Virus record (IMG/VR): IMGVR_UViG_3300032332_000523
Span: 1 to 57,746 of that record
From: a virus
Lineage: Duplodnaviria; Caudoviricetes
DNA: 57,746 bases
Strand: one strand, 5' to 3'
Under the pieces are notes generated by a model. It had not been told where the DNA came from. It was given only the letters and a program-made list of their open reading frames with translations, and made no database searches. The translations under genes were made by a program, and so were the position numbers. Within the stretch, counting starts at the first letter, position 1; every line of letters starts with the position of its first letter. This document shows, piece by piece, positions 8,926 through 32,342 of the stretch.

Positions 8926-9187
8926 AGGTCATCTCAAAGATGTCAGGCTTGCAGGGGTACAACTCACCGTTGACGCCGCGAATAATCCAGTCGCCCGCAT
9001 TGCCTCGCATCACGCCTTCAAGGGTATGAATGAAAACGCTAGGCATATCACGGGTGAATTTGCCCATACCCTGAAGAGTCACCGCATTGGACTGGATGGC
9101 TTCTGCCCACCAGTCAGGCGACGCCAAGTCCATGCGTTTTTCTATTTGAATGGCTTCAATGACCACAGGCTTCTTGCGGTATTTCAT
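8912..9187 (-). CDS. Conserved small phage protein (YRKKPVVIEA...TLEG...GDWII.G..GE.YPCKPDIF..TY; PGDYG-like)
   Basis: Widely recurring phage family recognised from motifs; function uncertain. Confidence 0.8.
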   Translation of the reverse strand: MKYRKKPVVIEAIQIEKRMDLASPDWWAEAIQSNAVTLQGMGKFTRDMPSVFIHTLEGVMRGNAGDWIIRGVNGELYPCKPDIFEMTYEPA

Positions 9188-10707
9188 ATCAGGCTCCCAT
9201 TGTTAAAGTCCGGCGTCTGATGGCCCTTGTCTTGGAATGAGAAGGCCGGGATCGACCACACCGTGGCGCGCTTGCCGTTGAGCTTGTAAGTGTGGGTCTC
9301 GCCACCGTAGTCGCGGATGGCAGAGCTGATCTGGTTGAGCTTGAATTCCTTGAACTTCTGCTTGTCGAGAAAGTTGATGAAGTCTGCCAGTCTGAACAGG
9401 TGACGATTGTCATCGCGGTCGTGGAATGGTTTGCCCAGGAGGATCTCGTCAAGGTGCTTGGCCTGCGCCTTGCCGGTGCAGAAGCGTTCGAGTAGGTCGA
9501 TGAACTGGCCCTTGGGGCTGGCGTCCTCTGGTGCCTCGATGACCACCACGTCTTGCAGCAGGGCCTGTATCATCTGGTTCCACTGCGTCTGATTGACCTT
9601 TGGCGGCATGTAGTTCATGGCCTCCATGCAGCGCTTCTGGAAGCCTGCCTGATTCTGCAGGTCCTCAGTTGACAGTGACAAGCGCATCCCGTTGTCCATA
9701 TCAAGGAACCAGATCGGCGGCTCCGTGTTGTACTTGCTCAGTGATGATAGCCTGGGTGCCCCTGAAGACTGGCCCACTCCATACTTGCGCATGCGGCACA
9801 TGCCAGCATTGCAGTTTGGTCGTAACGGCGGCCGGCTGCACGTGTATTGGTAGTCGCTGTTCTGCATCGACTGGATGACCCCCATCGCCTCTGACTCTGG
9901 TAGCGGAGGGTCCATGATGTCGATGTTCATCTGCATGACTAGGGGCTGCCAGTCATCAGGTTTCATCTTCCTTGCTAGAACACACAGGTTGAACAATCCG
10001 TTGTTCCTGGTGCCCTCTGGGAACCCCGATTGAGCCAGTTTTTCAATGCATGGAGGTGCATCCTTGTAGGCGCGCTTCTTGCTTTTGGCTTCGGCAAACT
10101 TGAGCCGTATGAAGTTGGCCTTAGTTAGCTTCAGGCCTTCGGCGTAGGTCAGGAAATCGTCAATCGGCATGGGGCTGCCGTTCTCAGCCACCCCGTATCT
10201 CGACGTCCTGTCGCCCTCGAAGTAGGGCATGTTGATCCAGTTGCCGATGTCGCCGCGTTCTGTCAGCACTTGATCTTGTTTGGGGAAGATCTCGCAGTTA
10301 GGATGGCCTATGACGGTGGCCAGGTCTGCAAGCTTTCGTTTGACTTCTGCAGCCGGTATGGGCTCACTGAAGAACATGTAGATGTGCGCGCCGCCAGACT
10401 TGCTGCGGCACACGACGACAGGAGCCTTGGCCTTGGCACAAGCTTCAACTGCCTCTTTCAGGTCAAAATTCTTGTATTCATCAACATCAATCGCGCCAAA
10501 GAGACAGGTGTTGTCTTCTTTGATCGGCACAATACCAATCCCCTTTGTCCCAGCAAGATGACCGTCCCAAAGCTGCTCGGTGACAGGAGCCCGTTTCGTG
10601 ACAGCTGTCCCCTGTACCTTCAGGCCGGTATTCTTGCCGTCGATGTCATAGGTTCCGTAGGCCCCTGTGTGCCCGGAAAATAACTCCATGAATCTTTGTG
10701 CAAGCAT
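9184..10707 (-). CDS. AEP-superfamily primase (TOTE-like catalytic domain plus PriCT-type domain)
   Basis: GAIDVD (DxD), RSKSGGAHIY, EIFPKQ, GNWINMPY, PPC...EGTRNNGLF. Confidence 0.88.
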   Translation of the reverse strand: MLAQRFMELFSGHTGAYGTYDIDGKNTGLKVQGTAVTKRAPVTEQLWDGHLAGTKGIGIVPIKEDNTCLFGAIDVDEYKNFDLKEAVEACAKAKAPVVVCRSKSGGAHIYMFFSEPIPAAEVKRKLADLATVIGHPNCEIFPKQDQVLTERGDIGNWINMPYFEGDRTSRYGVAENGSPMPIDDFLTYAEGLKLTKANFIRLKFAEAKSKKRAYKDAPPCIEKLAQSGFPEGTRNNGLFNLCVLARKMKPDDWQPLVMQMNIDIMDPPLPESEAMGVIQSMQNSDYQYTCSRPPLRPNCNAGMCRMRKYGVGQSSGAPRLSSLSKYNTEPPIWFLDMDNGMRLSLSTEDLQNQAGFQKRCMEAMNYMPPKVNQTQWNQMIQALLQDVVVIEAPEDASPKGQFIDLLERFCTGKAQAKHLDEILLGKPFHDRDDNRHLFRLADFINFLDKQKFKEFKLNQISSAIRDYGGETHTYKLNGKRATVWSIPAFSFQDKGHQTPDFNNGSLI

Positions 10708-10989: not shown

Positions 10990-11763
10990 TCAATAGGGGA
11001 TGTCATTTTCCTGAACCGCGCCCTCAGCTGGCGGCTCAGCAACCTTCACTAAGCCTGCAGTGACGTCCTGACCAAACTTCTTTGCAGCATCGTAGATGTT
11101 GCGGTCTTGCACCATTGACGCATCATTGATCAACCAGCCATACCAGCTGTTGGCATCCTTGGTCTCCATGCCAGTGCCCAAGTGATAACTGTGGCTGAAC
11201 GGGGGAGGTGTGAAAGACTTGTCGCCAACCTTGACCTGCAGTGCCATCATCTGACCGAGCCAGCGGCGGCTTTTCTTCAACTGCGTTGAGGACATGGCAA
11301 TCAGTGCCCGTTCAAAACCGCCGTCAGACAACACCAGCACATAGTGGTAGGCGGTCGTCACGATCAGGTTGCCGTTGGCCAGCACATCCTGATTGCGCTC
11401 GTTCTTCTTGGTCTTCTCCAAGATCTTCTCGTCGGTGTGCTCTTTTACCAAGCCACCGCCTGCTTCACGTGGGGTCCATTCCACGTAGCTCTTCTTAAAC
11501 GCGCAAGGGATCACGCGTACTTCCTTCATCAACTGACCAGTCACGGTGTTGATCATCAGGCCTTCTTCGGCACCAGCGATCTTGGTGACTCCACGAAGTT
11601 CAGGCGACAGGGCCTGCAGTACCTTGAGGTACGGGATAGCGACATCGTTTGCCGAGACGTTCTCGAATCCGAGACCGGCATCAGCCATCATGTCATCTGC
11701 AAAGCCCACTGGCAAGTTGTGTTGTGTAACTGCCACTTCAGTCTTGTCCGTCTTCTTAACCAT
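10990..11763 (-). CDS. Putative single-stranded DNA-binding protein
   Basis: DVAIPYLKVLQALSPE motif, acidic tail ending DIPY, position between polymerase and primase. Confidence 0.65.
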   Translation of the reverse strand: MVKKTDKTEVAVTQHNLPVGFADDMMADAGLGFENVSANDVAIPYLKVLQALSPELRGVTKIAGAEEGLMINTVTGQLMKEVRVIPCAFKKSYVEWTPREAGGGLVKEHTDEKILEKTKKNERNQDVLANGNLIVTTAYHYVLVLSDGGFERALIAMSSTQLKKSRRWLGQMMALQVKVGDKSFTPPPFSHSYHLGTGMETKDANSWYGWLINDASMVQDRNIYDAAKKFGQDVTAGLVKVAEPPAEGAVQENDIPY

Positions 11764-12311
11764 TACTTACTCCTTTTGATCTTAGCGATTTGGCCGATAT
11801 ACACGTTGAAAAGTTCAAGAGGAAAGTCGGCACCGCCTTCCACTTGCTCTTTGACGAAAGCTGTCAAAGTCTGTGGGTGAACACCCATCTTGCCGGAATA
11901 CTCCATGCCCTGCTCTTCCAGCGCGGCCTTGAATTCTTCGGCTTTCTCGTGTTCACCTCGATTAAATGTGAGGGTTACTTCGTCCTTGATCAGCGCCTCG
12001 TGGCCGTTGTCATGCAGCCAAGTAAAGCACTCCTCGCGTTTCTCCTCACTGATCTTGGCGCTGTAGTACGGTTTGACGGTGACTTCACTACCGTCTGTAA
12101 GCGTAAACTTTGCCACTCCTACCTCTGCCATCGCGTCAGGAAGTTGCAGCTCTGCAATGTTCCTAGCGCGTTCTTTCAAGGACTTCAGATATAACTCCGA
12201 CTCCTTTATCTCCTCATCAAGTTCTGTGTACTCTTCTGCAAGCGTACTGATCTTGCCCAGACCGGAAAGCGCTGAACCAGCACTATCGGCCATCATGTCT
12301 TCTTCAAGCAT
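11763..12311 (-). CDS. Conserved replication-module protein (N-terminal coiled coil)
   Basis: LPDAMAEVG...FTWLHDNGHEALIK...VHPQTL.AFVKE; start ATG 12311 with AGGAG RBS. Confidence 0.75.
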   Translation of the reverse strand: MLEEDMMADSAGSALSGLGKISTLAEEYTELDEEIKESELYLKSLKERARNIAELQLPDAMAEVGVAKFTLTDGSEVTVKPYYSAKISEEKREECFTWLHDNGHEALIKDEVTLTFNRGEHEKAEEFKAALEEQGMEYSGKMGVHPQTLTAFVKEQVEGGADFPLELFNVYIGQIAKIKRSK

Positions 12312-12621
12312 TTCTAGCTCCTGTAAGATCCGCCTCAAGGGCGTAGTAACGATGCTCTTGGCGATCCCACTTAAGCATCTTGATGACGCCGCGATTGAAC
12401 CCGGCGGCAATTGCAACGGACAATCCAATGGCTATGGGGTCACCAATGGCCAAAAGAAAATCGCTGTCCGAAAAACCCCTCAACTTATCCCGCAGCACGC
12501 GAATGGTTGGCGCAGTGGCCATCATCACTTGCCCCGGAGGCAGCAGAGTCTGTAGCTCGCCATATTCAGCTGCCGGCAGCAGGTTGAACTTTGGCGAATC
12601 CTGTACGACGTAGACGGTCAT
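12304..12621 (-). CDS. Conserved hypothetical protein
   Basis: MTVYVVQD...DFLLAIGDP...LKWDRQ; GGAGG RBS; ATGA overlap. Confidence 0.75.
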   Translation of the reverse strand: MTVYVVQDSPKFNLLPAAEYGELQTLLPPGQVMMATAPTIRVLRDKLRGFSDSDFLLAIGDPIAIGLSVAIAAGFNRGVIKMLKWDRQEHRYYALEADLTGARNA

Positions 12622-13025
12622 TGCACGCCTCCGACTTGTGCGTGACGCACCGCATATTCCGTGCAAAACGGAGGGACGTTAAACAATAGTTCTTTCATAC
12701 TTTCCCAATCAAACGGCTTCATGCAGCTCCACACTTCGAACAACTCCATGTCACGCTGGATCTGATAGACCTTGATGACATCCTCATTCCTAGCTAGTAC
12801 AAATACCCGTCCTCCGTTGTCCTGGCGTTTACGGTGCCATAGGACCTGTTCTGGTCGAAGCTGACAGCTACCCTTAGCATCCAAAATCTTGAGCTCCAGC
12901 CATAGCTCTGTTGAGTCGTAGCACATGTTTACGTCAGGAGTCCCCCTTGTAAGGGCGTTCTCCATGCGTTCCACGTGGCCTGGCAGCTTTCCCTTGACTA
13001 AAGCCCAGAATTCGCTCTCTTTCAT
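12618..13025 (-). CDS. PD-(D/E)XK nuclease (VRR-NUC / Holliday-junction resolvase-like)
   Basis: MKESEFW...RMEN...GTPDV...WLELK...LRPEQ..W; ATGA overlap with the polymerase stop. Confidence 0.85.
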   Translation of the reverse strand: MKESEFWALVKGKLPGHVERMENALTRGTPDVNMCYDSTELWLELKILDAKGSCQLRPEQVLWHRKRQDNGGRVFVLARNEDVIKVYQIQRDMELFEVWSCMKPFDWESMKELLFNVPPFCTEYAVRHAQVGGVQ

Positions 13026-14884
13026 AGCTGCACCTCGACTGCTTCTCCCCAGCTGGGTCCAAGCTCGCAATCGACTTTCAAGGGCACTACCAAGTCCACG
13101 CATGTCAACATCTCCTGACGAATCATCCTGGCATGGTCCAGGTCCCGTACGCTGAAGTCCAGCTCGTCATGGATGGTCAAATGAGGCACTTCGCCCTTCT
13201 TAAACAAGTTGATCATGGCCATCTTGATCATGTCTGCAGACGACCCCTGGATGACTGCATTCATGGCCTTATGCGCAAAGTACCGCTTCAAGGGCAGCCC
13301 GTACTTTTCTTCAGCCAGGTCTTTCTTCAGCGGTATCAGGCCGGGTGAATACTTAGGCGGCCCAAACAACTGGAACCGTCTACGGCGTCCGGAGAACGTC
13401 TTGACGTAGCCGCGGTTCGTGGCGATCAGCGTGCATTCCTCGCCAAGGGCCTTGATGAACGGCACGTTCTCGTGGTACTGCTGATAGACGCGTTTCGCCT
13501 CTGCTGGAGGCAGGCCAAGTTGCGTGGCTGCCTTTGCAGCCCCCATGCCGTAGGCCAGTCCAAGGTTCAATACCTTTGCGCTTTTCCGACTAATTCCAGC
13601 CATGTCAGCAACCAGCTGATGGTAGTCAGTGTTCGGATCATCAAGGTACCGGTTACGCGCAACATCAGCACCAGGAAAGCCACGCAAGAAGCTGTAATGA
13701 ACTGTGACACGCGGCTCTTGCTGAGAATAGTCAAATACGCCCCACTGACATCCCTTCTCAGGTACAAAGATGCCTCGGATAAGAGGAGCCAGCACTGGAT
13801 CTCGAGCTGGTACTTGCTGCATGTTCGGGTTAGCCGATGCAAAGCGCCCAGACTTTGTGCCACCACGGTCATCTCGGACTTGCCTAAAGGTTGGGTAGAT
13901 TTTTCCATCTTTTTCCATCTGAATGATCTTGCTGTCGATAAATACTCCGCCGGCCCGGTCGAGCTTCCGGACCTTCGAAATCAAGGAGAAAAATTCATGT
14001 TCACTAGCTTCAAGAAACTCACTGGGAAAACTAGCATTCCCCTTTTCAGTCTTTGGGTAATCCAGCTTCAATGCATCACAGGCTGCCTGTATATCGTCAC
14101 CAGACCAGATGTCTACATCCCGCTCTGCAACCTTCTTGAGTTGCTCCGTCAGCTTGCCTTGCTCTTCAAGTAGCAGGGCCTTCACCTTGTGCGCCTTGTC
14201 CAAGTCAATGGGCACGCCCTTTTGGCGCATGGCCACAATGACGTCAACCAGCTGCGTCTCCATCTGGAATACGTCCCACAGCTTCTCGTCGTGCAGCAGC
14301 ACCTCCTGTTGCGCAAAGATGCGGATGGGCAGGTCAGCGTCCTTTCGTCCATAAGGTGCCACCTCGCCAGCGTGAAACTGCCAGAGGTTTTCCTTAACCT
14401 TGCTTGGATGGATCCCACGGCGCACTGCTGCTGCAATCAGCTCTGTCTCATCCTTGCGTTCGCCAAGGTAAGACTCGGCCAGCGCATCCAGCCTATACGT
14501 GATGCGGTCCTCGTCCAACAGCGGTTCGGCAATCTGCACGTCGTACTTTGGCCCGTTGACCTTGACGCCTTCTGTCAGCAGCCACTCCAAGTCGTATGGG
14601 ATGTTGGCCCCAATCTTTGGAATGTCTGTCTTCATCATGTCCCGCAGCCATGCAAACGCGTTGTCAGGATTAAGGTTACCGCCGGCCGCATGACGCACTG
14701 GGTAGTACTCAGCAAAGCCGTCGTCAGTGGCAACCGAGAATCCGACGATGTAGCCATCTCCTCGTACTCCGCCAGGACCCTTAGTCATTAGGTTGGGATC
14801 TCTCGTCTCGCAGTCGATCGCGAGCCGCTTTGCCACCAGAAGATTTGGAAAGTGCTTCGGCGGCTGATATGATGTGTCGTCCAT
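13022..14884 (-). CDS. polA: DNA polymerase family A with 3'-5' exonuclease
   Basis: AIDCET (Exo I), SGRFASANPNMQQVP, DYSQQEPR (motif A), KVLNLGLAYG (motif B), TIHDEL (motif C). Confidence 0.96.
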   Translation of the reverse strand: MDDTSYQPPKHFPNLLVAKRLAIDCETRDPNLMTKGPGGVRGDGYIVGFSVATDDGFAEYYPVRHAAGGNLNPDNAFAWLRDMMKTDIPKIGANIPYDLEWLLTEGVKVNGPKYDVQIAEPLLDEDRITYRLDALAESYLGERKDETELIAAAVRRGIHPSKVKENLWQFHAGEVAPYGRKDADLPIRIFAQQEVLLHDEKLWDVFQMETQLVDVIVAMRQKGVPIDLDKAHKVKALLLEEQGKLTEQLKKVAERDVDIWSGDDIQAACDALKLDYPKTEKGNASFPSEFLEASEHEFFSLISKVRKLDRAGGVFIDSKIIQMEKDGKIYPTFRQVRDDRGGTKSGRFASANPNMQQVPARDPVLAPLIRGIFVPEKGCQWGVFDYSQQEPRVTVHYSFLRGFPGADVARNRYLDDPNTDYHQLVADMAGISRKSAKVLNLGLAYGMGAAKAATQLGLPPAEAKRVYQQYHENVPFIKALGEECTLIATNRGYVKTFSGRRRRFQLFGPPKYSPGLIPLKKDLAEEKYGLPLKRYFAHKAMNAVIQGSSADMIKMAMINLFKKGEVPHLTIHDELDFSVRDLDHARMIRQEMLTCVDLVVPLKVDCELGPSWGEAVEVQL

Positions 14885-15278
14885 TTTTAATCCAGAGTTG
14901 GCCGGCTTCGGCATGTGCGTAAGGTTCGATATACACGATTCGTTGGCAGCTTGTGTTCAGCAACAGCTTCATGCAAGTCATGCAAGGCATCGCTGTGACG
15001 TAGGCTGTCTCGATCTCGTTTACGTCTCGGCATTGGAGGAGGGCGTTTTGTTCTGCGTGAATAGCTTCGCACTTATCCAGGCCAGTGCCCGAAGGAAGAC
15101 CAACACCGGGACAGTGAAAGTCAATGCAATGAGTATGGTTACGAGGAACCCCGTTGTAACCAGTAGCAAGAACGTGGCCACGACTGGATACAAGCACACA
15201 GCCAACAAGCCGCCTTGCGCATGTACCGCGTCTGCTGACCAAAACAGCCAGTTCCGAAAAGTATTCATCTTTGGTCAT
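14781..15278 (-). CDS. dCMP deaminase
   Basis: CARRLVGCV, ATGYNG, HAEQNA and PCMTC Zn motifs; ATGA overlap at 15275-15278. Confidence 0.92.
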   Translation of the reverse strand: MTKDEYFSELAVLVSRRGTCARRLVGCVLVSSRGHVLATGYNGVPRNHTHCIDFHCPGVGLPSGTGLDKCEAIHAEQNALLQCRDVNEIETAYVTAMPCMTCMKLLLNTSCQRIVYIEPYAHAEAGQLWIKNGRHIISAAEALSKSSGGKAARDRLRDERSQPND

Positions 15279-16069
15279 CCTTTCCATGATTTCAGCTCAC
15301 TCAAAAAGCCTTTGTCAACACCAAAAAGCGCAACATCCCACAGATGACTTACCAGGTCGTCGTAGTCCTTGAACTCATCTAAGTTAATCGGAGCGTAGTC
15401 CCCAAGAATCTCACCAGACAAGCACTCTTCAATGCCGGCCCAATCATCTTCGTAAATGTGCTGGCTGGCTGCGTAGAAGTGCAGACAGTTCAGCTTAACG
15501 TGCACGCCTTTCTCGCGAAGCAGTAAAGCCACGCCAGCAGACAACATGCTGAAGTTGAACCAGTCGTAGGGCACACCAAGCCAAGCGTCAGAAGAGCGCA
15601 TGTTCATAAAGCAATCCAGCATACCGTCGCGAACGATAAACTGGCAGCTGATCGTGCAGGGGATGTCTTTTGATTCCCGTGGATTTGGACGCCAGATGCT
15701 TATGACTGCTTGGCGTGAGTCAATGTCATCACACAGACTTTTGACTACATGACCCAACTGGTCGCGTACCGGAGGTCCGTATGCGCCAAAGAATAGGATG
15801 CCGTCATCTGAAAACCTGCTGATGACCTTGCTAAATGGGGCAATTGTGCTGACGCGATTATCGCCAGACATGATCCAAGCAGCCTCTGCGGCCATGAACT
15901 TATAGCCAAGCTTGCGCTCCTTGATCGTGATGACCGGCTGATTCATGTTGATCATGGACTTCATGCCTAAAAGCTCCTTGGTCTTCTTGCCACGAGGGCA
16001 AGCAAGCCGGCCACTGTTCATGACCATGTACAGCAGGTTTTGCCAATGAATGTTGACTGTGTTAGCCAT
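15275..16069 (-). CDS. Thymidylate-synthase-family enzyme, dCMP hydroxymethylase-like
   Basis: SRQAVISIW, DIPCT (catalytic Cys then Thr), MRSSD..LGVPYD (Asp at the specificity site), SQHIYE. Confidence 0.85.
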   Translation of the reverse strand: MANTVNIHWQNLLYMVMNSGRLACPRGKKTKELLGMKSMINMNQPVITIKERKLGYKFMAAEAAWIMSGDNRVSTIAPFSKVISRFSDDGILFFGAYGPPVRDQLGHVVKSLCDDIDSRQAVISIWRPNPRESKDIPCTISCQFIVRDGMLDCFMNMRSSDAWLGVPYDWFNFSMLSAGVALLLREKGVHVKLNCLHFYAASQHIYEDDWAGIEECLSGEILGDYAPINLDEFKDYDDLVSHLWDVALFGVDKGFLSELKSWKG

Positions 16070-17054
16070 AGAGGACCTCTTTCAATTCGGCTGTAAATTC
16101 TTCGCGCTTGTTGAAGCGCTTGGCGTAAGAAGGATGCATGACCTTGGTCACGCGACGACTGAACTCGGTGATCGTGTCGTAGCTTGAATTTCCAAAGCAG
16201 ATGACCTTGATGTAAGGCTTAGCGCGAATGCAATCATTCACAAACAGCGGCCCGTTGTAGTCGTGGGCGTTCACGTAGACCGCACGTGTCTCATCAAATG
16301 ACAGGTCATGCAGCACTGATGCAAAGAACTCACTGCAGTTGCCAAAGTCATAGAACGGCCAACTGACTGCACGCAACTTGCTGTTGGCCTTGTCACCGAC
16401 AAAGATGACGTTGGCCTCATGCAAGTGGCCAGCAAAGTTTTGCGCGTCGAGATTCAGGGCTGGCTCGTATTGCTTAGCCTTACGAGATTCCAAGACATGC
16501 ATGACCATGTCGATGTAGACATCAAGGTTGCTACCTTCAACGTCATAGCGATATGGCAGGACGTCATCACGTACACGCATGCCAAACACAGACAGCTGCT
16601 GCACGTAGTCGGTATCATGAGCCTCAATGCCGCCGGCAAATAGCATGTCAAAGCGGCGGCGTACTTCTTCAACGTCGTCGTACATCTCGCTACGCTCAGC
16701 CTTCAGCTGCTGAAACTTCTCAAAGTGATTTGAAGGCGACTGCGCAAGGATGTAGACACCGGCATGCTTGCGAATGATGCGATCCATCATGCGACCCATG
16801 TGAGGCCAAGGACTGCCTCCGCGATATGCTGCAGCATAGATAGCCTCACTCATCCACAGACGATCAATGACTACCAGTCGCGTACGAGCCAGCTTCAATG
16901 CGCGATGCAAAGCAGCAGTGTGGTACAGCGGCATCTTGGTAGGCCAGCGATACGTGTTGTGAATGTAGACGCCATCATGCTTGTCGCAAATAGCCTTAGC
17001 AAGCGTAGTCTTGCCTGTTCCATCACATCCATCAATGACGATGATGCCTTTCAT
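16062..17054 (-). CDS. dNMP kinase (P-loop) fused to a C-terminal uracil-DNA-glycosylase-like domain
   Basis: IDGCDGTGKTT and VIDRLWMSEAIY (thymidylate-kinase-like); C-terminus VIFVGD...WPF...VNA...VICFG...VMHPSY (UDG-superfamily pattern). Confidence 0.75.
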   Translation of the reverse strand: MKGIIVIDGCDGTGKTTLAKAICDKHDGVYIHNTYRWPTKMPLYHTAALHRALKLARTRLVVIDRLWMSEAIYAAAYRGGSPWPHMGRMMDRIIRKHAGVYILAQSPSNHFEKFQQLKAERSEMYDDVEEVRRRFDMLFAGGIEAHDTDYVQQLSVFGMRVRDDVLPYRYDVEGSNLDVYIDMVMHVLESRKAKQYEPALNLDAQNFAGHLHEANVIFVGDKANSKLRAVSWPFYDFGNCSEFFASVLHDLSFDETRAVYVNAHDYNGPLFVNDCIRAKPYIKVICFGNSSYDTITEFSRRVTKVMHPSYAKRFNKREEFTAELKEVLYG

Positions 17055-17446
17055 TCTTTCTCCTTTCTGATGAGGTCCGTAAGCGTTGGAGCCACGAATC
17101 CTGCAGGTTTCACTATATCATAGGTAGACCCACGCTTGCTATCGCTTGACCTCAAAGCCCTGACTTTTGTCATGTTGGCTTGGTGCACCCGGAGGAACCC
17201 TTGTTCAAAGGGGAGGCCAGCCAAGTATGCTGCTCCAAGTGCTACATAGACTAAGTCAATCAAGCCGTCAAAGTACTCCTCAAGGTCGCCGTTGATGGCA
17301 GCTGCGCGTAGCTCGTCAAGCTCTTCCTGCATGTGAACATTCTTCAGCTTCCAGATCTGCTCAACCGGAAAGTCAGGCTGGCTGGTGGGCTCGAGTCCGA
17401 ACTTCTTGTGGAAGTCTGCGACCATTTGGAACATGTCCATGCTCAC
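17051..17446 (-). CDS. All-alpha NTP pyrophosphohydrolase (MazG / PRA-PH-like; candidate dCTPase/dUTPase)
   Basis: EELDEL...DGLIDLVYVALG...VHQANMTK...KPAGF.AP. Confidence 0.88.
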   Translation of the reverse strand: MSMDMFQMVADFHKKFGLEPTSQPDFPVEQIWKLKNVHMQEELDELRAAAINGDLEEYFDGLIDLVYVALGAAYLAGLPFEQGFLRVHQANMTKVRALRSSDSKRGSTYDIVKPAGFVAPTLTDLIRKEKE

Positions 17447-18297
17447 TCTCCCAGGTAATCAAAGAGGGGTTGCCAGGAGCTGCTGCTTGACAAGGGCTGA
17501 TTGAGCTGACTAAATTTTTCAGCGCTGAACATCTCTTGTGTAGTGGGCAGCTTGACACGCCACAACACGTTGCGAGACCGGTGAGGATAGAGCGGGGCAA
17601 AGATAGTTGCCAGGTAATTGCTGTCGTAGTAATCACGCAGGCGATTGAAGATTCCATCGAGATCATCTTTGGCGACCATGTCCTTGTAGTCTTTGATTGA
17701 GGCAAAAGTGCCGTAATGCGCGTCAACTTCTAAGCCGACCTTGTGGAGCATGTTCTGCATCACTTGGTAGGTCATCTCGTTAACGTGGTTGTCCGCTGCC
17801 CCAACTTCAGGGTCGTAGACAGGCGTGCTGATGAACGCCATGCCATAGGTTTCAAGACGATCGCGGATGCCTTCCAGCATCTTGTAGGCATGTAGTGGCT
17901 CAACGTGTTCCAGTACCTCAAAGCAGGTGATGACGTTGAACTTCTCATGGGGTAGTGTGCAATCAGGGAATGCCACGTTGCCAATCAGCGTGGGCTTGAA
18001 CTTCGTGTTCTCAAATGCCTTAGGCATCTCAAGCTTGTTGTAGTCAATGCCAACGTAGTCCAAGCCATCAGAAGCCATGCGGCTGGTCATCAGCATCTTG
18101 GCCAATGGCACGTCTTTGCCGCAGCCAATGTCAAGCAGCTTGCAGTCTTTGCGGTTGGCAGGCTTGCCCATGTACTTGGCCACATGCGTCCAACGAAGAC
18201 AGTGCGCGATGTAGTCGCGATGGATGAAGCCGCGCTCTTCAGCCTGATCAATGCTCAGGTGGGTATTGTCGATAGTCTTTCCTCTGGCGTTAGCCAT
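17443..18297 (-). CDS. Class I SAM-dependent methyltransferase (small-molecule type)
   Basis: LLDIGCG, YVGID, FNVITCFEVLEHV, FISTP; no DNA-methyltransferase PCQ or (D/N)PPY motif. Confidence 0.9.
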   Translation of the reverse strand: MANARGKTIDNTHLSIDQAEERGFIHRDYIAHCLRWTHVAKYMGKPANRKDCKLLDIGCGKDVPLAKMLMTSRMASDGLDYVGIDYNKLEMPKAFENTKFKPTLIGNVAFPDCTLPHEKFNVITCFEVLEHVEPLHAYKMLEGIRDRLETYGMAFISTPVYDPEVGAADNHVNEMTYQVMQNMLHKVGLEVDAHYGTFASIKDYKDMVAKDDLDGIFNRLRDYYDSNYLATIFAPLYPHRSRNVLWRVKLPTTQEMFSAEKFSQLNQPLSSSSSWQPLFDYLGE

Positions 18298-18322: not shown

Positions 18323-18336
18323 GGGGCCGAAGCCCC
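18323..18336 (-). terminator. Hairpin with cUUCGg tetraloop after DUF932 (weak terminator or stabiliser)
   Basis: GGGGC-TTCG-GCCCC on the minus strand; poor U tract. Confidence 0.55.
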
Positions 18337-18341
18337 AGGGT

Positions 18342-19328
18342 TTAAGCTGCTTCGGCAAACTCGACAGCGAGGTCGAGAGCTTGGCGCTTGCGGGTAGCTG
18401 CAGAGCCAAACCAAGCACTTGTGAGGCGCTTGTCTTGGTCTGTGCCAGCGACGTGGTCGTAGTAGTACGTCACGGCGTTGAATGCGCCCCACCACGTACC
18501 GGCCGATGTCTTCAGATCAGCGCCGGGCTGGGTGTGCACGATGTCAAGCAAGCGATTGACTGTGCGGCCAAGCTCTGCACGACTGACTTCACCTTCTTCA
18601 GAGGCAACCAAGGCTGCTTGATATTGGTCAGGGCTTACAAGGTCAGCGAAGAACTTCATGACTTGCTGGTCAGAGGCACGCTTCTTGGACAAGAACTCGG
18701 CTTGCTTCTTGAAGATGTCAAGCGACTTCATAGCAAGGCCGACCTTCTCGGCAGCCGTCTGCTTGATCTCGTCGTCGAACGCGCGATCGTGCGACATGCG
18801 AAACGTGTTGTCTTTGTTTGACTTATCACGAAGGGCAGCCGTCAGCGTGTTGTTGCAGACTACGCGAATTGGCGTGAACAAGATCTGCAGGCTGCGGCCC
18901 CAGATGTGGGGGTTGTCAAGGAGGATGTAGCCTTGGACTTCGTCTTTGCCGCCAAGCATGAAGCCGCCGTTGATCTTGGCAAGGCCCCATACGCGTTTGC
19001 CGCCGTGCAAGGAACCAGCTGTCTCCATCTTCATGTCGCCTGCCTTGCAGAACTTGTCGAAGAATTCGAAGACGTCTTTGTTTTGGGTGGGGTTGTAGTC
19101 GCTGCCGCAGATGCCGAGGATCTTGCTGTCGGTATCGCGCACGAGCGCGTAGTGGCTGGTCAGGGTGTGATCCAGCTCGTCGACCACAAGGGCCTTCTTC
19201 TTGACTTGCCAGTCTAGGCCGGCGGCAGTCAACATTTGCTCAGGGTTCAGGTTGTCTGCGACGGGGGTGCCAAGGCCGTGCCAAGGGGTCTCATTGGCGT
19301 AGGCCATCGTTTCAACTTCGTGGGACAT
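18342..19328 (-). CDS. DUF932 / TIGR03299-like protein, first early gene
   Basis: MSHEVETMAY...PWHGLG...AGLDWQV...TPIRVVCNNTL...GT.WGAFNAVT. Confidence 0.9.
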   Translation of the reverse strand: MSHEVETMAYANETPWHGLGTPVADNLNPEQMLTAAGLDWQVKKKALVVDELDHTLTSHYALVRDTDSKILGICGSDYNPTQNKDVFEFFDKFCKAGDMKMETAGSLHGGKRVWGLAKINGGFMLGGKDEVQGYILLDNPHIWGRSLQILFTPIRVVCNNTLTAALRDKSNKDNTFRMSHDRAFDDEIKQTAAEKVGLAMKSLDIFKKQAEFLSKKRASDQQVMKFFADLVSPDQYQAALVASEEGEVSRAELGRTVNRLLDIVHTQPGADLKTSAGTWWGAFNAVTYYYDHVAGTDQDKRLTSAWFGSAATRKRQALDLAVEFAEAA

Positions 19329-22600: not shown

Positions 22601-22956
22601 TCAAGGGCTCCTTTAGGCTCGTCAATGCCCATGTCCTTGCGAACGGCTTCCTTGATCTTGCCAGCCTTCTTGTCGGCAGCCACGGCAAAGTCCGGCGCGT
22701 ATTTTTCATCAACAATGCCAGCCATTGCAGGAATGGCCACGGTGTTGTAGTAGATGCCAGGAGTCCCCTTGCCCATCCCAACTTCGCCCTTGTCGTTGAT
22801 GCCGGACCACTGGCTCTTGAAGCCAGCCACGGCCTGCTTTGCGGCCTTGGTGACGGGCGACTCTTGCAGGGCCTTGGTCAGGTCTTTGAGGTCCCTTATC
22901 CGGGAACCTTTTTGTTCGTACTTCTTGCTGAGATCAAACTTGTCAAGATCACTCAT
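19603..22956 (-). CDS. Large multidomain internal virion/ejection (polyvalent-type) protein
   Basis: Last late gene; contains an NYREVLL...SHW...LAHYR...VDEIQSDWHQ domain and a C-terminal VLHGS domain resembling degenerate ADP-ribosyltransferase domains. Confidence 0.75.
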   Translation of the reverse strand: MSDLDKFDLSKKYEQKGSRIRDLKDLTKALQESPVTKAAKQAVAGFKSQWSGINDKGEVGMGKGTPGIYYNTVAIPAMAGIVDEKYAPDFAVAADKKAGKIKEAVRKDMGIDEPKGALEHFAYAGGEMLGQLPVPGAVMNKVVGGAKKLGMAGKIAAAPIEYLSPTIDPRAINYGIGTTFGGTIGTAGEALSEEPVKKALGGLIQKYENGGKVSKVKTFFSAVDKAIDTLKQKKGTGEQILKQLETTPGVKREELESRGIKQKLTASPKITQEELQQVAKANKPAIPERITLEKGDTKFGRYSKSKGADNYREVLLQHQDKDPPGASAMRSRLQELLTSPGGGGDVYREIDDLLEKLGTNRERYNSSHWNQPDVLAHYRVSDMTGPNGEKVLYVDEIQSDWHQGARDARKKQVKNLLANERESINAQAVEQLKQEVGNTDMTQKNMTLLKKIENGLTRERKAQLEKEVDENFGYKGQEDDEKLYQLNSKMERLRNSGATQDELKEYFQPGKIVRTSGNYDKVLSFNSGEDSPEYKKFYDQYYARNMDIGVGEEVAARNARKNALEKTKGQWSVTVIAVDKNTGQPLKGEQPRNHSTSPEPYIVEQIRKEAEAIEAKVPDAPFKKNWHELAVKDILDLAAKEGYDKVAFSPGIEQVKRYSNDLRKTVDRIHYLPSEDGGMIVTAFKGDGAVFEGKVFDGSFVGGTANGKTLSDVFGSNIANQIEEGAPGLQEALRANPEQVPKGVIKGDDLTIGGEGMKSFYDKRLPDYVKEYGRKEFKAPTGYMEIEGKTAPQHFTHQDLIAEEARLQDDDPMELMEMTNELTEERASQALTRRGINEDSMSAEDWSDMLADEMDNHQGDAYRWAVRQLAERNLKAASNKTEKQRLFSIDVTPEMKEKITTQGQKLYATAPAVGLGATQLPQQQAAQPEVAPEPAQEEPPQASPEAPEAFQEGGKVGSMAKAADSLLRVLHGSPTKVRLEQGKSMDVTTEPNYAMKRARDKMDIIGSEGPPMLNKFDIPAKKLLRFEEQYSPEDVARMKRFYSKLPEGQAMTGSEIYDAAEGKDYVLDGIAKAGGFAGYERPASGSGNIGNWFRVSDQNALTRKARGGLMHLQNPYR

Positions 22957-25900
22957 TGTTGATGCTCCGGATGATGCGTTGGACTTTGGCTTCGTCGTCC
23001 TCACCCTCTGGAGCTTCTTCTGGTACGGGGACCGGCCGCGGCGTCGTCGGCAGTGTGGCCCCAACGGCACCCGACACTGTCTTCATTCTACGTGAAGACT
23101 TGTTCTCGTCTTCAATGATCTTTTTGCTGCCGGCTTCCAGGCGATTCAAGACGTCATCAACCTCTTGGGTGCTGCCGGACTTCAGCATCTTGGCTACCTC
23201 GCCAGCGGTCTTCTCGTCAAGCGTCGTGCGAGCCTGCAGGTACTTCAGGACGCGTCCCACAACTGAGCCAGGCGAACCAGTTGCCACGTCCATGGCTTCT
23301 CCTGCAATGTCGAAGATGCCGTTGCCAGCCTTCAGGTCTTTCAAGGCCTCTGTCTTGTTGGCCGTACGGCTGCCGCGGACTACGTCCTGGGCATTCCTGA
23401 AGAGCTCAGACTCGCGCTGCATGGCTGCCTCAAACAGCTTGTACTCGTTGGGGTCCTGGAACAATGCCTCAAGACGCTTGCGGGTAGCCGGGGCTCCAAT
23501 GATGCGCTGGGCGGCGTTGACTTGCTGGGGAGCGTCAAGGACCTTGGTCAAGAGAGACTGGGCCACACCTGCGCGCAAGGCATCGCGCTCTGCATCTGAC
23601 ATGGCGTCCACAGTCTTCTTGGCTTCCGCTGGCAGCATCTTGGGGCTCAGGTAGTCTGTGCGGCCCATGCGGAGCGCGTCCAAGACTTCCATGTCGCCAG
23701 CATACTTTTTGCGGGCAGCTGCATACTCTGGTACGTTCTCGTCGATGACTTGGACGTAGGCCTTCTTGAGGTCCTTAAGGGCGTTTGCTTCTGCCTTGCC
23801 CATGCCTTCGCCGCGATAGCCCTTGTCAATGAGCGCATCGATGCCACGCTTGATGTAGTCAAGGGTGCGGACGTCAGGGATCTTGCCAACGCTGATCAGG
23901 TTGCCGGCATCGTCTGTGTCGTAGATGTCGTTCAGTTTGAAGCGGCTTGCGTCCTCTCCGCGAAGTTCGGCTGCCCGTGCTTCCTTACCTGCGATGGCTT
24001 GAGCTTCCTTGAACGCCTTCTTGAAGGTGTCATCTTCCAAGACCTTCTGGAGGCGCGTGTCATCAACCGAGCCGTATGCGTAAGCCTTATCGTAGAGGTT
24101 ATTGGCATTGGCGCGAAGCTTGCCCATCAGGGTGTCTTCTTGCGCCGTGTAATCTACGCCCTTGCCTACGTCTTTGAGCGCACGTCCCGCTGCGGACTCG
24201 CGTCCGCTTTCAAGGCGGTCATTCAGCTCCTGTCCAAGGATCTTGCGACCCTGTCCAGGACGTGTCACTACTGCCTCGCCCAGGGTTGACAGGGATGGGG
24301 TGGCGTCCATGATGGTGGACTTCACGCCAAGCTTCTTGTCAGCCATCATCCTGTCGCGAAGTGCTTGGGTATCCATCTCGTCGCGGCCCATGGCCTGAAG
24401 CACTTTCTCATTCGCGCGACGCTGAACGGCACCCACGGAAGGGGAGACTGCATTCTTGATGGCTTTGGCACCAGATCCAACCAGTTGAAGTCCTTTGGCT
24501 ACAGTTGGGCCAAGGACCATTCCTGTCGCACCTCCTTCAAGGGCTCCTTCAGCACGGTTTCCTTCTGTCGCCGAACCTGCCCCTGAGATGGCTCCAGTTG
24601 CTGCTCCAGTGCCAGCCGCCCTACCCATGGAGCCGGTCATGAATTTTGGAAGGGCAGCCATAAACTTCTGGGCCGTTGCGGCCATGCGCGGGGCATTTGC
24701 AATAGCCCCAGCTGTACCGGCACCTGGGACCATTGACATAGCCACAGTTGGAATAAGCCCGGAGACAAGCTCGGTTCCAAGTGCGGCATAGGGATGTTTT
24801 TCTTGAAACTGCTGATATGCCTCGCGTTCTTCGGCAACGACCTGGTCGTATGGACGTCCCTCCATCTTGGCGCGGACGCGGGCGATTGCCTCGTCTCCAA
24901 AACCAAGACCAAGGCCTTGGCCCATGGCGCGGCCAAAGTTTGCCATCGAGTAGTCGCCACCGTCAGCCATGTGGACCATACCGCCATCGGCATAGTGGCC
25001 AACCGGGCCGCCATCTGCCTTTTCTTCAGGCTCCATGCGGCTGTAAGCTCCTGATTTGAGCTTCTTCATCTTGTCTTCATTGAGCTGCACTCGGCGGGCC
25101 GCTGCTGCAATGGCCCGATCCCAAACTGCAGCGCGTTCTTTTGGTCCCATGTTGATGGAACCTTGGAGATCGAGCAAGATCTTGCGTTCGCCCTCTGTTG
25201 GGGCTCCACCAAAGATGCCTTTGAGTTGATCAAGGGCATTTTGACCAACCAAGCTTTCCAGTTCTGTTGTAGCTGTCACGCCTTCAGAGTCGCCAACGCC
25301 AGGGATGTTTCGTCCAATGGTGCGACGAAGACCAGCCCCCATGCCTGAGTAAGCCTTGTCGTTTAGGCTTTTGGCCTTTGTCAAGTTTAAGATGACAGTC
25401 TTGCCAGACTTGACAATGTCGTCGGCCTCAAACATCTCCTTTTGCTCGGTGGCGCTCAAGGTCATGCCCTTGCCCTCACCCGTGAGCTGTTTGACACGCG
25501 CGATGTATTCAGGTGTTCCTGGAGTCAGGCCCTCGTCTTTGGCAATCTTGCCTGCACCAGACAGGGGCTTACCAGCATCTGTCTTTGCCTTTTCTTCTGG
25601 CGCAATGTAGTTCAGCTTTTTCAGACGTTCGCGATAGACTTGCTTGTCAGCCTTGGAGACGTTGGGATCATTGATCTTGGAAAGCAGCTGGTCAATCTCG
25701 TTGGTTTGGCCGCTGGCATGCGTAGTCAGATAGGCGATACGCGCCTTGTAGACTTTCTTGTCGTCTTCAGATGCGTTGGGGTCATTGAGCCTAGCAACTA
25801 GATCGTCAATCTCCGTGACCTTGGCCTGGCCACCTGCATGAGTTGTCAAGTACTTGATGCGATCCCTGTAGATGGTCTTATCAGCATCAGAGACTTCAGG

Positions 25901-27004
25901 ATCATTGAGCCTAGCGACTAGATCATCAAGCTCAAGCGTCTTTTTGGCAGCGGCCGGCTTTGTAGGGTGGACTGTGAGATATTGAATCCGAGCCTTGTAG
26001 GTCTTCTTGTCATCTTCAGATGTGGTGGGATCATTGATCTTGGCTAGTAATTGGTCGATCTCGCTTCCTGTTCCTCCATGAGACGTCAAATAAGCAACAC
26101 GTGCCTTGTAGACTTTCTTGTCGTCATCGGACAAGTTGGGGTCGTTCAACTTGGCAACCAAGTCGTCCAACTCATTGCCTTTGCCACCATGAGACGTCAA
26201 GTAGGCAACACGAGCCTTATAGACTTTCTTGTCGTCATCGGACAATTTGGGATCGTTCAACTTTGCCACAAGCTGATCAATCTCGCTGGTCTTGTCGGCT
26301 CCTGCGCGGGTGGTCAAATAGTTGATTCGCGCCTTGTAGACTTTCTTGTCGTCATCAGACAAGTTGGGGTCGTTCAACTTGGAGACAAGCTGATCAATTT
26401 CATTGGTCTTGCCAGGACGAGTGGTCAAGTAAGTGATGCGAGCTTGCGCGTTCTCCTTGGCTTTCTTATTGGACGCAGGGTCGTCAATGACTTCCTGCAG
26501 CTTTTCTACTTCGGTCAGGCGGTCCCTTGGCACGGAACGGGCCAGCGCTGACAAGGCACCCACTTGGGTCTTGTACTTTTCACCTTGGACGTCAGAGGCT
26601 GCCAGCTTATACTTGAGGTTGAGGTCCTCAAGTTCTTGATTGGCCTTACGACGTTCTGCTAGACCGGTCGTTGTGGCTTCAGCCACGTTAGCCAGCGTCT
26701 CGCCAAAGCCACCGGTACGCGTAGGCTTGCCAAGAGCTGCTGCCAGACGAAACGCCATCTCTGCTGAATCCGGACCAATGGAACGATCCATGAGGCGCTG
26801 ACGCGCCTCGTCCAGCAAGGCCTGCTTGTCCGTCGCAGACTTTTCGCTTTGCTGCATGTACTTGGTGAGCAAAGTCTGAAGCTGCCCCGTGTAAGGATTT
26901 GCCGCACCCCTGGATGAAGTGTAGCCAGCCGACGAAGCAACCTGCGTGCCACCTTGTCCTTCGTCATTTGTGTCTTCGCCTTCAACATCGTCTTCGAATG
27001 CCAT
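22949..27004 (-). CDS. Large ejection/DNA-transfer protein with helical repeats
   Basis: 1351 aa, helical, Gly/Ala-rich GQGLGLGFGDE segment, downstream of the tail stabilisation gene. Confidence 0.8.
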   Translation of the reverse strand: MAFEDDVEGEDTNDEGQGGTQVASSAGYTSSRGAANPYTGQLQTLLTKYMQQSEKSATDKQALLDEARQRLMDRSIGPDSAEMAFRLAAALGKPTRTGGFGETLANVAEATTTGLAERRKANQELEDLNLKYKLAASDVQGEKYKTQVGALSALARSVPRDRLTEVEKLQEVIDDPASNKKAKENAQARITYLTTRPGKTNEIDQLVSKLNDPNLSDDDKKVYKARINYLTTRAGADKTSEIDQLVAKLNDPKLSDDDKKVYKARVAYLTSHGGKGNELDDLVAKLNDPNLSDDDKKVYKARVAYLTSHGGTGSEIDQLLAKINDPTTSEDDKKTYKARIQYLTVHPTKPAAAKKTLELDDLVARLNDPEVSDADKTIYRDRIKYLTTHAGGQAKVTEIDDLVARLNDPNASEDDKKVYKARIAYLTTHASGQTNEIDQLLSKINDPNVSKADKQVYRERLKKLNYIAPEEKAKTDAGKPLSGAGKIAKDEGLTPGTPEYIARVKQLTGEGKGMTLSATEQKEMFEADDIVKSGKTVILNLTKAKSLNDKAYSGMGAGLRRTIGRNIPGVGDSEGVTATTELESLVGQNALDQLKGIFGGAPTEGERKILLDLQGSINMGPKERAAVWDRAIAAAARRVQLNEDKMKKLKSGAYSRMEPEEKADGGPVGHYADGGMVHMADGGDYSMANFGRAMGQGLGLGFGDEAIARVRAKMEGRPYDQVVAEEREAYQQFQEKHPYAALGTELVSGLIPTVAMSMVPGAGTAGAIANAPRMAATAQKFMAALPKFMTGSMGRAAGTGAATGAISGAGSATEGNRAEGALEGGATGMVLGPTVAKGLQLVGSGAKAIKNAVSPSVGAVQRRANEKVLQAMGRDEMDTQALRDRMMADKKLGVKSTIMDATPSLSTLGEAVVTRPGQGRKILGQELNDRLESGRESAAGRALKDVGKGVDYTAQEDTLMGKLRANANNLYDKAYAYGSVDDTRLQKVLEDDTFKKAFKEAQAIAGKEARAAELRGEDASRFKLNDIYDTDDAGNLISVGKIPDVRTLDYIKRGIDALIDKGYRGEGMGKAEANALKDLKKAYVQVIDENVPEYAAARKKYAGDMEVLDALRMGRTDYLSPKMLPAEAKKTVDAMSDAERDALRAGVAQSLLTKVLDAPQQVNAAQRIIGAPATRKRLEALFQDPNEYKLFEAAMQRESELFRNAQDVVRGSRTANKTEALKDLKAGNGIFDIAGEAMDVATGSPGSVVGRVLKYLQARTTLDEKTAGEVAKMLKSGSTQEVDDVLNRLEAGSKKIIEDENKSSRRMKTVSGAVGATLPTTPRPVPVPEEAPEGEDDEAKVQRIIRSINNE
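25595..26516 (-). repeat. Eight intragenic 36-43 aa tandem repeats (EIDQLVAKLNDPNLSDDDKKVYKARIAYLTTH)
   Basis: Visible in protein and DNA, e.g. gccttgtagactttcttgtcgtc recurring. Confidence 0.92.
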
Positions 27005-32055: not shown

Positions 32056-32342
32056 ACTAGCCAACCTCGACCTTCTTTAAGGTCAACAGGCTGCCGACGG
32101 CCCCATTCTTTGAGAAAGTTCAGAAGGTCCTGGGGCGTATCCCCTTGCATCTCTTTGCTTTTTTCGTCCTCAACGTCGTAGATCTCGCAGAGATAGACCA
32201 CGCACATCAGCATGTCTAGGCTGTCAAGCCCGGTGTCCCTTAAGACCATCTCCATGGAGTCGATCTTTCGAACCTCACTGTTGAAAGGCCTGGCTTTTTT
32301 AGCTACGTCGTTCAGTAGCTCGATGAATTCTTGATCTGTCAT
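32052..32342 (-). CDS. Acyl carrier protein
   Basis: Acidic 96 aa; LRDTGLDSLDML phosphopantetheine motif; TAATG overlap with the upstream stop. Confidence 0.85.
   Translation of the reverse strand: MTDQEFIELLNDVAKKARPFNSEVRKIDSMEMVLRDTGLDSLDMLMCVVYLCEIYDVEDEKSKEMQGDTPQDLLNFLKEWGRRQPVDLKEGRGWLV

Follow-up and report, generated by a model that had tools for sequence, protein, structure and literature searches.

The stretch of DNA analysed herein (the window) is the whole of IMG/VR record IMGVR_UViG_3300032332_000523, a complete virus genome of 57,746 bases that carries direct terminal repeats and has all its long open reading frames (ORFs) on the minus strand. Ahead of polA, five overlapping minus-strand ORFs (14781-18297) encode a class I S-adenosylmethionine (SAM) methyltransferase, a MazG-like nucleoside triphosphate pyrophosphatase (NTPase), a deoxynucleoside monophosphate (dNMP) kinase fused to a domain of the uracil-DNA glycosylase (UDG) superfamily, a ThyA homologue and a dCMP deaminase (Table 1). 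Consecutive genes of this cassette overlap by 4, 4, 8 and 13 nucleotides (nt). A sequence-only reading of this DNA had described five coupled genes directly upstream of polA, and the ORFs are indeed present on the minus strand at the stated span; their families were borne out by Pfam, except for the UDG part, and PHROGs assignments concur for the cassette genes. We consider it fairly probable that the cassette encodes a T4-type, pre-replicative cytosine-replacement pathway joined by one dedicated tailoring enzyme, the methyltransferase.

Table 1. Genes and domains of the cassette and of the adjoining polymerase gene
Feature	Position	Strand	Extent	Family matches
Class I SAM methyltransferase, first gene of the cassette	17443..18297	-	284 aa	Pfam Methyltransf_23 4.9e-13
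MazG-like all-alpha NTP pyrophosphatase	17051..17446	-	131 aa	PRA-PH 1.1e-12; phrog_671 (nucleotide pyrophosphohydrolase) 2.6e-24
Kinase-UDG fusion ORF	16062-17054	-	330 aa	Thymidylate_kin 3.3e-06, N-terminal part only
Thymidylate-kinase-fold dNMP kinase domain	16467..17054	-	~residues 1-196 of the 330-aa fusion	
Divergent UDG-superfamily domain	16065..16466	-	~residues 197-330 of the fusion	
ThyA-family enzyme, predicted dCMP 5-hydroxymethylase	15275..16069	-	264 aa	Thymidylat_synt 9.8e-22
dCMP deaminase	14781..15287	-	168 aa	dCMP_cyt_deam_1 2.7e-20; phrog_174 9.6e-35
Family A DNA polymerase with 3'-5' exonuclease (polA)	13022..14914	-		DNA_pol_A 1.9e-55; exo 1e-07

The ThyA homologue (PF00303, 77.8 bits against a cut-off of 24.3) was aligned with E. 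coli ThyA, T4 gp42, the Xp12 synthase, an SPO1-like enzyme and the nearest phage homologues (alignment A1). Signature positions are given in E. coli ThyA numbering, in which the window enzyme's own Asp135 and Asp169 occupy the positions of L143 and N177. The columns of the catalytic Cys146 and of E58, Y94, R166, D169, H207 and Y209 are invariant in the alignment. Two replacements named by the sequence-only reading, Asp for Asn177 and PCT for PCH, are present as described: the Asp of GVPYD (residue 169, codon GAC, 15563-15565) aligns with N177, and the C and T of PCT (Cys138, 15656-15658) align with C146 and H147. Moreover, Asp135 (15665-15667) aligns with L143, a position that is also Asp in T4 gp42, MilA and the SPO1-like enzyme, Asn in Xp12 and Leu in E. 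coli. With D143/T147/D169/D177, the window synthase agrees with T4 gp42 at all four signature positions, whereas the 5-methyl-dCMP-making synthase of Xp12 has N143/P147/D169/D177 and the SPO1-like enzyme D143/N147/D169/N177. Among solved proteins, its closest relative in sequence is MilA, a CMP hydroxymethylase (3.1e-23), thymidylate synthases matching at 2.3e-15 or weaker, and it carries R126 and S167 of the deoxynucleotide type, unlike MilA.

These residues have published correlates. N177D is associated with dCMP as substrate, and hydroxymethyl rather than methyl products accompany an acidic residue at 143 (L143D/E), water reaching the methylene intermediate (PMC13326640, in part; "in part" marks a source of which a part was available). 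Positions 147 and 177 are the two that separate the synthases of modified from those of unmodified metavirome contigs (PMC8670742, in part), and Arg126/Ser167 as against Lys/Ala in CMP hydroxymethylases are the determinants for the sugar (PMC5175136, in part). From the signature residues, the kinship with MilA and R126/S167, the enzyme is predicted to be of the dCMP type, as the sequence-only reading had held, and specifically a dCMP hydroxymethylase, not a synthase of dTMP, 5-methyl-dCMP or 5-hydroxy-dCMP. A "thymidylate synthase" of the cultured pelagiphage HTVC200P (L010, 4965-5783) is 50% identical to that of the window and has the same gp42 signature.

The methyltransferase (Methyltransf_23, 49.6 bits against a cut-off of 27; pI 6.0) has the features of class I, with DIGCG (motif I) and GID conserved in alignment A2 and Z scores of 15-18 to many class I enzymes. 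The core motifs of UbiG are the basis on which its core is called UbiG-like in that alignment. A profile of the family matched, in the SAM core only, Rickettsia PKMT2 (3.2e-08) and UbiG (1.3e-04) in the PDB, and the best PHROG was phrog_4752, "tRNA methyltransferase" (3.5e-09). With an AlphaFold2 model (predicted local distance difference test (pLDDT) score 84), the highest structural score was to 4htf (Z 18.1, 210 residues at 4.2 A), which we take to be E. coli CmoM. Trm9 was among the next rows (Z 15.8), and phosphoethanolamine, pavine and toxoflavin N-methyltransferases are also among the structural neighbours. Foldseek and VIA searches with the model returned generic class I small-molecule methyltransferases only, with no substrate indicated. 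The conserved N- and C-terminal parts are rich in invariant His, Asp and Arg, and residues 1-50 and 160-284, the substrate-binding parts, matched nothing characterised in the PDB profile and fold searches. No DNA-methyltransferase family (N6, N4 or C5) of Pfam was matched at E <= 0.01, and none was among the fold matches listed; with the UbiG-like core, this agrees with the earlier description of the enzyme as a small-molecule type. CmoM and Trm9 methylate an oxygen on the C5 side chain of uridine. The likeness of the model to these two enzymes may serve as a lead for side-chain O-methylation, not as a test of it or a sign of membership: identity is only 14-15%, their substrate is an RNA carboxylate, and other small-molecule methyltransferases lie within ~2 Z. 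The family has 1614 database relatives at E <= 0.001 (the METHYLTRANSFERASE family). Nine of 10 Atlas clusters among the matches listed are 95-100% viral and one is 90% bacterial, so the family is almost entirely viral.

Among GenBank phages, the family matched five records representing four phages, AXL3, PW916 and two Manatee Spring genomes, all of which share the order methyltransferase, NTPase, kinase, synthase, deaminase; a megablast of the window's cassette against GenBank phages gave no match. IMG/VR held 352 relatives of the methyltransferase, of which the best 80 were examined, together with 27 loci of a second, divergent clade, for which the AXL3 protein (~33% identical to that of the window) served as query. 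The same methyltransferase profile was positive in 80/80 and 27/27 of these loci. In the set of 80, the NTPase gene adjoins the methyltransferase in 73, and a ThyA homologue lies within the locus in 65. The whole records of five of the 15 loci without ThyA were inspected: in three complete ones, the contig is permuted and the synthase lies at its opposite end, and in the other two (fragments 60% and 77% complete) it was not found. The remaining ten end inside or beside the cassette. A ThyA homologue is present in 26 of the 27 loci of the AXL3-type clade, and the last ends 430 nt past the methyltransferase. A ThyA homologue was thus found for 94 of 107 methyltransferase loci; 93 of these synthases have D143/T147/D169/D177, and one has S147 in place of T. 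Co-occurrence with Asp-type synthases, the check that the sequence-only reading had set itself, was therefore observed, Asp177 being present in 94/94.

In a quick maximum-likelihood tree, the linked synthases fall into three deep lineages. The first is the clade of the window, AXL3 and pelagiphages, ~20% identical to gp42; the second is the gp42 clade itself, with loci L041, L048, L049 and L077 at 46-49% identity to T4 gp42 and L052 at 37%; the third consists of L080 and L085. Gene order also varies, with the synthase either upstream or downstream of the methyltransferase. As a control, 57 loci were fetched with the Xp12 synthase, 18 of Xp12 type (N143/P147/D169/D177) and 39 of dUMP-hydroxymethylase type (D143/N147/D169/N177), and no methyltransferase of the family was found within 7 kb in any of them (0/18 and 0/39). 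Since it pairs with 94 gp42-signature synthases and with none in the controls, the methyltransferase goes with predicted makers of 5-hydroxymethyl-dCMP and not with those of 5-methyl-dCMP or 5-hydroxymethyl-dUMP.

The survey also bears on a reading in which the synthase makes 5-hydroxy-dCMP, as does RB69 gp48, and the ring hydroxyl is then O-methylated to 5-methoxycytosine, one of the products that the sequence-only reading had offered. UbiG-type enzymes methylate ring hydroxyls, which would suit such a step. ThyA homologues able to hydroxylate dCMP are known as well, but D169N marks them, 5-hydroxy-dC having been the product of all nine natural variants of this kind (PMC13326640, in part). 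Asn at this position is absent here, Asp169 being kept in the window enzyme and in 94/94 linked synthases, whereas all tested 5-hydroxy-dCMP synthases are D169N. We therefore regard 5-methoxy-dC as the less likely of the products named and, taken by itself, as exceedingly improbable.

AXL3, a cultured phage, has the same five-gene cassette. Only two of 37 restriction enzymes cut its DNA, TasI and Tru1I, which have A/T-only sites, and all 35 enzymes with G/C in their sites were blocked; its authors did not identify the modification and took the cassette for a thymidylate pathway (PMC7504290, in part). The paper on PW916 annotates the cassette in the same way, and the genes could on this account provide an ordinary supply of thymidylate, running from dCMP through dUMP and dTMP to dTDP. 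Such a role is hardly credible, as Asp177, Asp143 and Thr147 are not found in dTMP synthases, and AXL3, according to the available part of its description, has a separate ThyX as well as restriction-resistant DNA. The resistance to 35 of 35 G/C-site enzymes hints at, but falls short of proving, something more blocking than 5-hydroxymethylcytosine (5hmC). In the window, G/C-containing 4-mer palindromes are not depleted (mean observed/expected ratio 0.96; CTAG alone has z -3.2) and 6-mer palindromes are mildly so (ratio 0.83), a pattern that is compatible with protected DNA and too weak to count.

Eam1105I and AhdI are isoschizomers. KpnI and Eam1105I were included in the AXL3 panel (PMC7504290, in part), the 5-methylcytosine (5mC) DNA of Xp12 is completely cut by KpnI and AhdI (PMC7653180, in part), and its relative AXL1 is partly cut by KpnI and Eam1105I (PMC9206674). 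Because AXL3 DNA is left uncut by enzymes that cut 5mC DNA, its base is probably not plain 5mC. This argues against a synthase that would be an Xp12-like dCMP methylase, placing 5mC in DNA, with the deaminase making dTMP from 5m-dCMP. Asp177 alone cannot separate methylases from hydroxymethylases, and neither ThyX nor a second ThyA was found when looked for in the window genome, both of which favour a methylase. So does a study in which deaminases beside synthases could prefer 5mC: out of 90 deaminases linked to synthases, seven converted 5hm-dC to 5hm-dU, and these seven adjoined synthases predicted to make 5m-dCMP, as was confirmed for five (bioRxiv 10.1101/2024.12.05.627091, in part). Nonetheless, N143/P147 in Xp12 and 18 of 18 IMG/VR relatives contrast with D143/T147 here, so that the window synthase lacks the Xp12-type mark N143/P147/D177 (our reading of Xp12 and its relatives rather than a published rule). 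Moreover, Xp12 has a dihydrofolate reductase (DHFR) gene beside its synthase, and no DHFR-like family was found among the 48 ORFs scanned here. A 5mC product thus appears very improbable.

The other enzymes of the cassette fit the same scheme to different degrees. The NTPase matched PRA-PH at 48.6 bits (cut-off 21.3), with D. radiodurans DR2231 as its nearest solved protein (3.8e-07). It would act as a dCTP/dUTP-clearing enzyme and would resemble T4 gp56 in role. The deaminase (PF00383, 72.6 bits against a cut-off of 25) has the zinc motifs HAE, at residue 77, and PCxxC, at 101. A plain dCMP-to-dUMP role like that of T4 Cd is the simplest reading, and a preference for a modified substrate is conceivable.

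The model of the 330-aa fusion has a pLDDT of 92. Its kinase domain (residues 1-196) gave VIA Z scores of 14-15 to YorR and many thymidylate kinases; the Thymidylate_kin match (27.4 bits) is at the cut-off of 27. The P-loop GxDGxGKT and DRxW are invariant, and the motif DR(L/W)W..SE occurs in 19/19 relatives. The domain is a putative 5hm-dCMP kinase. For the C-terminal part, Foldseek matched the family-4 UDG 1l9g of T. maritima (E 1.9e-4, TM 0.51 on the target) and UdgX (3.5e-4), and Pfam UDG, which did not register on the window protein (E 0.2), gave weak matches in seven of 19 relatives (best 2.6e-4). A profile of this domain against the PDB found no UDG, only chance trypsin-like matches at E 0.08 or worse. 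Family-4 UDGs have a motif A of GE(A/G)PG, a motif B of HPS and four Cys for an Fe-S cluster. Here, VG[DE], WPF, N and HPS motifs are conserved; HPS is kept, motif A reads VG[DE]x.N, and there is no conserved Cys. "Kinase-UDG fusion", the term of the sequence-only reading, thus holds for the fold, by the Foldseek match, and fails for the canonical motif A and the Cys residues. Candidate roles of the domain are removal of uracil or 5-hydroxymethyluracil (5hmU) and pyrimidine binding. Both halves are in one ORF in 45 of the 49 loci with a kinase, three of the other four being cut by the end of the locus. A kinase without the UDG-like domain is seen in L071 and in GenBank MW202510, and one clade of methyltransferase loci (L085:8229-9116, L087:3549-4433) has, between NTPase and synthase, a shorter (294-295 aa), very divergent fusion of P-loop and UDG-like parts, 25% identical to that of the window. 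An aGPT-Pplase/5-HMUDK identity for the fusion was considered and dropped in view of its thymidylate-kinase motifs and fold and the lack of any such Pfam match; glycosylase-like proteins of that kind have a helix-hairpin-helix fold and belong to DNA-level phosphorylation in thymidine hypermodification (PMC8989533).

These activities can be arranged into a pathway. The MazG-like NTPase would remove dCTP (and dUTP), returning dCMP, which the ThyA homologue would convert to 5hm-dCMP. The thymidylate-kinase-fold domain would phosphorylate the latter, with a host NDP kinase completing the triphosphate, and the phage PolA would incorporate 5hmC in place of C. The deaminase may supply dUMP to the thymidylate synthase of the host, the genome having neither ThyX nor a second ThyA. 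The UbiG-like methyltransferase would then act on hydroxymethylcytosine, either in the nucleotide or in DNA, most plausibly by O-methylating its 5-CH2OH group, with 5-methoxymethylcytosine as the product, and might thereby fill the place of the glucosyl- or carbamoyl-transferases of other phages. The parallel with T4 drawn by the sequence-only reading extends to all four roles, each with a predicted counterpart in the cassette: the hydroxymethylase, the dNMP kinase, the dCTPase-like NTPase and the dCMP deaminase. That DNA cytosine is replaced by a 5hmC-derived base appears quite likely. As to the substrate of the methyltransferase, we lean slightly towards that base. Its assignment as 5-methoxymethyl-C is tentative, as is the wider suggestion, offered with equal reserve, that 5-methoxymethylcytosine fully replaces cytosine in this phage and in several hundred freshwater, marine and soil phages with the cassette, including AXL3 and PW916.

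Several observations weigh against this proposal. The signature residues of the synthase are correlates validated on limited sets, its clade is only distantly related to gp42 at the identity given above, and the NTPase showed no similarity to T4 gp56 (E 0.36) in a comparison by BLASTP only. The loci examined number 107 of ~380 known; they come from related phages, so that the counts are not independent events, and the control loci come from few lineages. Co-occurrence, moreover, indicates dependence on the pathway and not a substrate. With the substrate-binding parts unmatched, O-, N- and C-methylation are indistinguishable. Primary alcohols are less usual acceptors in SAM-dependent O-methylation than phenols or carboxylates. 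The restriction data on AXL3 are unable to tell a modified C from a modified G.

Some of these reservations favour a pathway that stops at plain 5hmC, the methyltransferase serving another metabolite, a protein, RNA or the consumption of SAM. Its fold and sequence indicate no substrate, and its best sequence match in the PDB is the core of a protein-lysine methyltransferase. The synthase of HTVC200P shows this signature too, yet the five phage records matched by the methyltransferase do not include that phage, and the methyltransferase is therefore optional for the pathway; the DNA of HTVC200P may contain plain 5hmC. In addition, plain 5hmC DNA (T4gt) by itself withstands 186 of 227 enzymes, according to the available part of the source. 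Against such an arrangement, the methyltransferase has gp42-signature synthases as its only partners, in all three synthase lineages and in several gene orders, and is missing (0/57) from loci of other synthases that share the MazG, deaminase and polymerase neighbours. It is also translationally coupled to the NTPase and belongs to the nearly all-viral family described above. A plain 5hmC product is thus unlikely, though far from negligible.

The enzyme could instead modify the base at another atom, giving for example N4-methyl-5-hydroxymethylcytosine, which has the same mass as 5-methoxymethylcytosine. The N-methyltransferases among its structural neighbours would accord with this, as would its absence from the 39 dUMP-hydroxymethylase loci, which implies that both the hydroxymethyl group and the cytosine moiety matter. 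However, alignment A2 shows no amino-methyltransferase motif (D/N/S)PP(Y/F) after strand 4, and an N4-methylase would have no reason to avoid the 5mC cassettes of Xp12 type, in none of which (0/18) the enzyme occurs. Methylation at N4 appears distinctly improbable, and O-methylation of the hydroxymethyl group continues to be the reaction that we put forward.

The T4 pathway (gp42, gp56, the dNMP kinase gp1, Cd and the alpha- and beta-glucosyltransferases) has the same four roles and the same synthase signature. In T4, however, glucosyltransferases tailor 5hmC, whereas a SAM methyltransferase is proposed to do so here; the absence of a glycosyltransferase noted by the sequence-only reading held in Pfam scans of 48 ORFs, which gave no glycosyltransferase or carbamoyltransferase family and covered the small ORFs only partly. 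The two systems also differ in the low identity of the synthases and the lack of BLAST similarity between the NTPases mentioned above, and the window has a kinase of thymidylate-kinase fold fused to a UDG-fold domain and a polymerase of family A. In the pathway to 5-carbamoyloxymethylcytosine, a carbamoyltransferase tailors the 5-CH2OH group, whereas the candidate here is a Methyltransf_23 enzyme. MilA, the best solved relative of the synthase, and BcmA resemble it in having Asp at the 143 and 177 positions and differ in Lys/Ala as against Arg126/Ser167 and in context, which for the window is phage replication. The bacimethrin cluster pairs an enzyme of CMP hydroxymethylase type with a SAM methyltransferase and a kinase. 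Xp12 shares with the window Asp177, a deaminase adjoining the synthase and, on our proposal, complete replacement of cytosine, and is unlike it in N143/P147, the DHFR gene and the lack of such a methyltransferase. RB69 and DLP3 likewise use a ThyA homologue on dCMP and a dNMP kinase, after which an oxygen at C5 receives a transferred group, but their synthases are D169N and bind flavin, and the group transferred is arabinose, whereas the window keeps D169 (PMC13326640, in part).

A further close precedent is the MetaGPA module of ThyA (Asp177), PRA-PH, a dCMP-family deaminase and PolA in cytosine-modified metavirome contigs, to which the 5-carbamoyloxymethylcytosine pathway belongs and which has the same Pfam domains in the same neighbourhood (PMC8670742; bioRxiv 10.1101/2024.12.05.627091; both in part). 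The sequence-only reading had proposed the pathway as a candidate new one; its core was already known, and the addition of the methyltransferase is undescribed in the literature searched. The main text of PMC8670742, as available, lacks the string "methyltransf", the supplements being outside the scope of the search, and a dedicated methyltransferase is not described in the 5-hydroxycytosine paper (PMC13326640). Nothing relevant on methoxymethylcytosine, 5-methoxycytosine or related bases was found in the literature searched.

Other features of the genome were observed in passing. The true start of polA is probably Met43 (14788), an ATG that overlaps the stop of the deaminase gene. Immediately upstream of the methyltransferase, in the window as in many related loci, is a gene of DUF932/TIGR03299 type (18342-19328, minus strand); it is missing from others and is therefore probably outside the pathway. 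Between the two genes is a GGGGC-TTCG-GCCCC stem-loop (18323-18336, minus strand), unflagged by a terminator scan; after it comes an AGGAG ribosome-binding site, 6 nt ahead of the methyltransferase ATG. The promoter and terminator scan gave site numbers no higher than in shuffles. Downstream of polA and a VRR-NUC-like ORF lies a trio like Pam3 gp34, gp33 and gp32 (10990-12666, minus strand; 8.7e-63, 5.9e-32 and 1e-27), and an AEP-TOTE-type primase is found at 9184-10707. A 1351-aa protein (22949-27004, minus strand) with no Pfam family above cut-off has repeats of ~37 residues of the form ...LNDP.(L/V)SDDDKKVYKARI.YLT..., as read from the translation; it and the product of the adjoining 1155-aa ORF are probably internal or ejection proteins. 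Within the block of structural and ejection proteins, a 376-aa ORF (30934-32064, minus strand) matches the two halves of beta-ketoacyl synthase, Ketoacyl-synt_C (3.3e-17) and ketoacyl-synt (2.2e-07), an enzyme fold that is odd for a virion module; PHROGs places it in a family of unknown function. A homologue of the GroES-like co-chaperonin (53189-53608, minus strand; Cpn10 1.1e-10) adjoins the head genes.

In the loci examined, an almost entirely viral family of methyltransferases is found only beside synthases of hydroxymethylase type. The question that it raises is directly testable, AXL3 being in culture and its DNA being already known to resist G/C-site enzymes. If 5hmC is indeed capped with methyl, both the resulting natural DNA base and the enzyme activity would be new, and this would be the first simple alkyl capping of 5hmC, as opposed to its glycosylation or carbamoylation. 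Such an enzyme could serve to mark or protect 5hmC. Modified bases have given rise to tools for epigenome sequencing, and they decide the survival of phages against restriction, CRISPR and modification-dependent nucleases.

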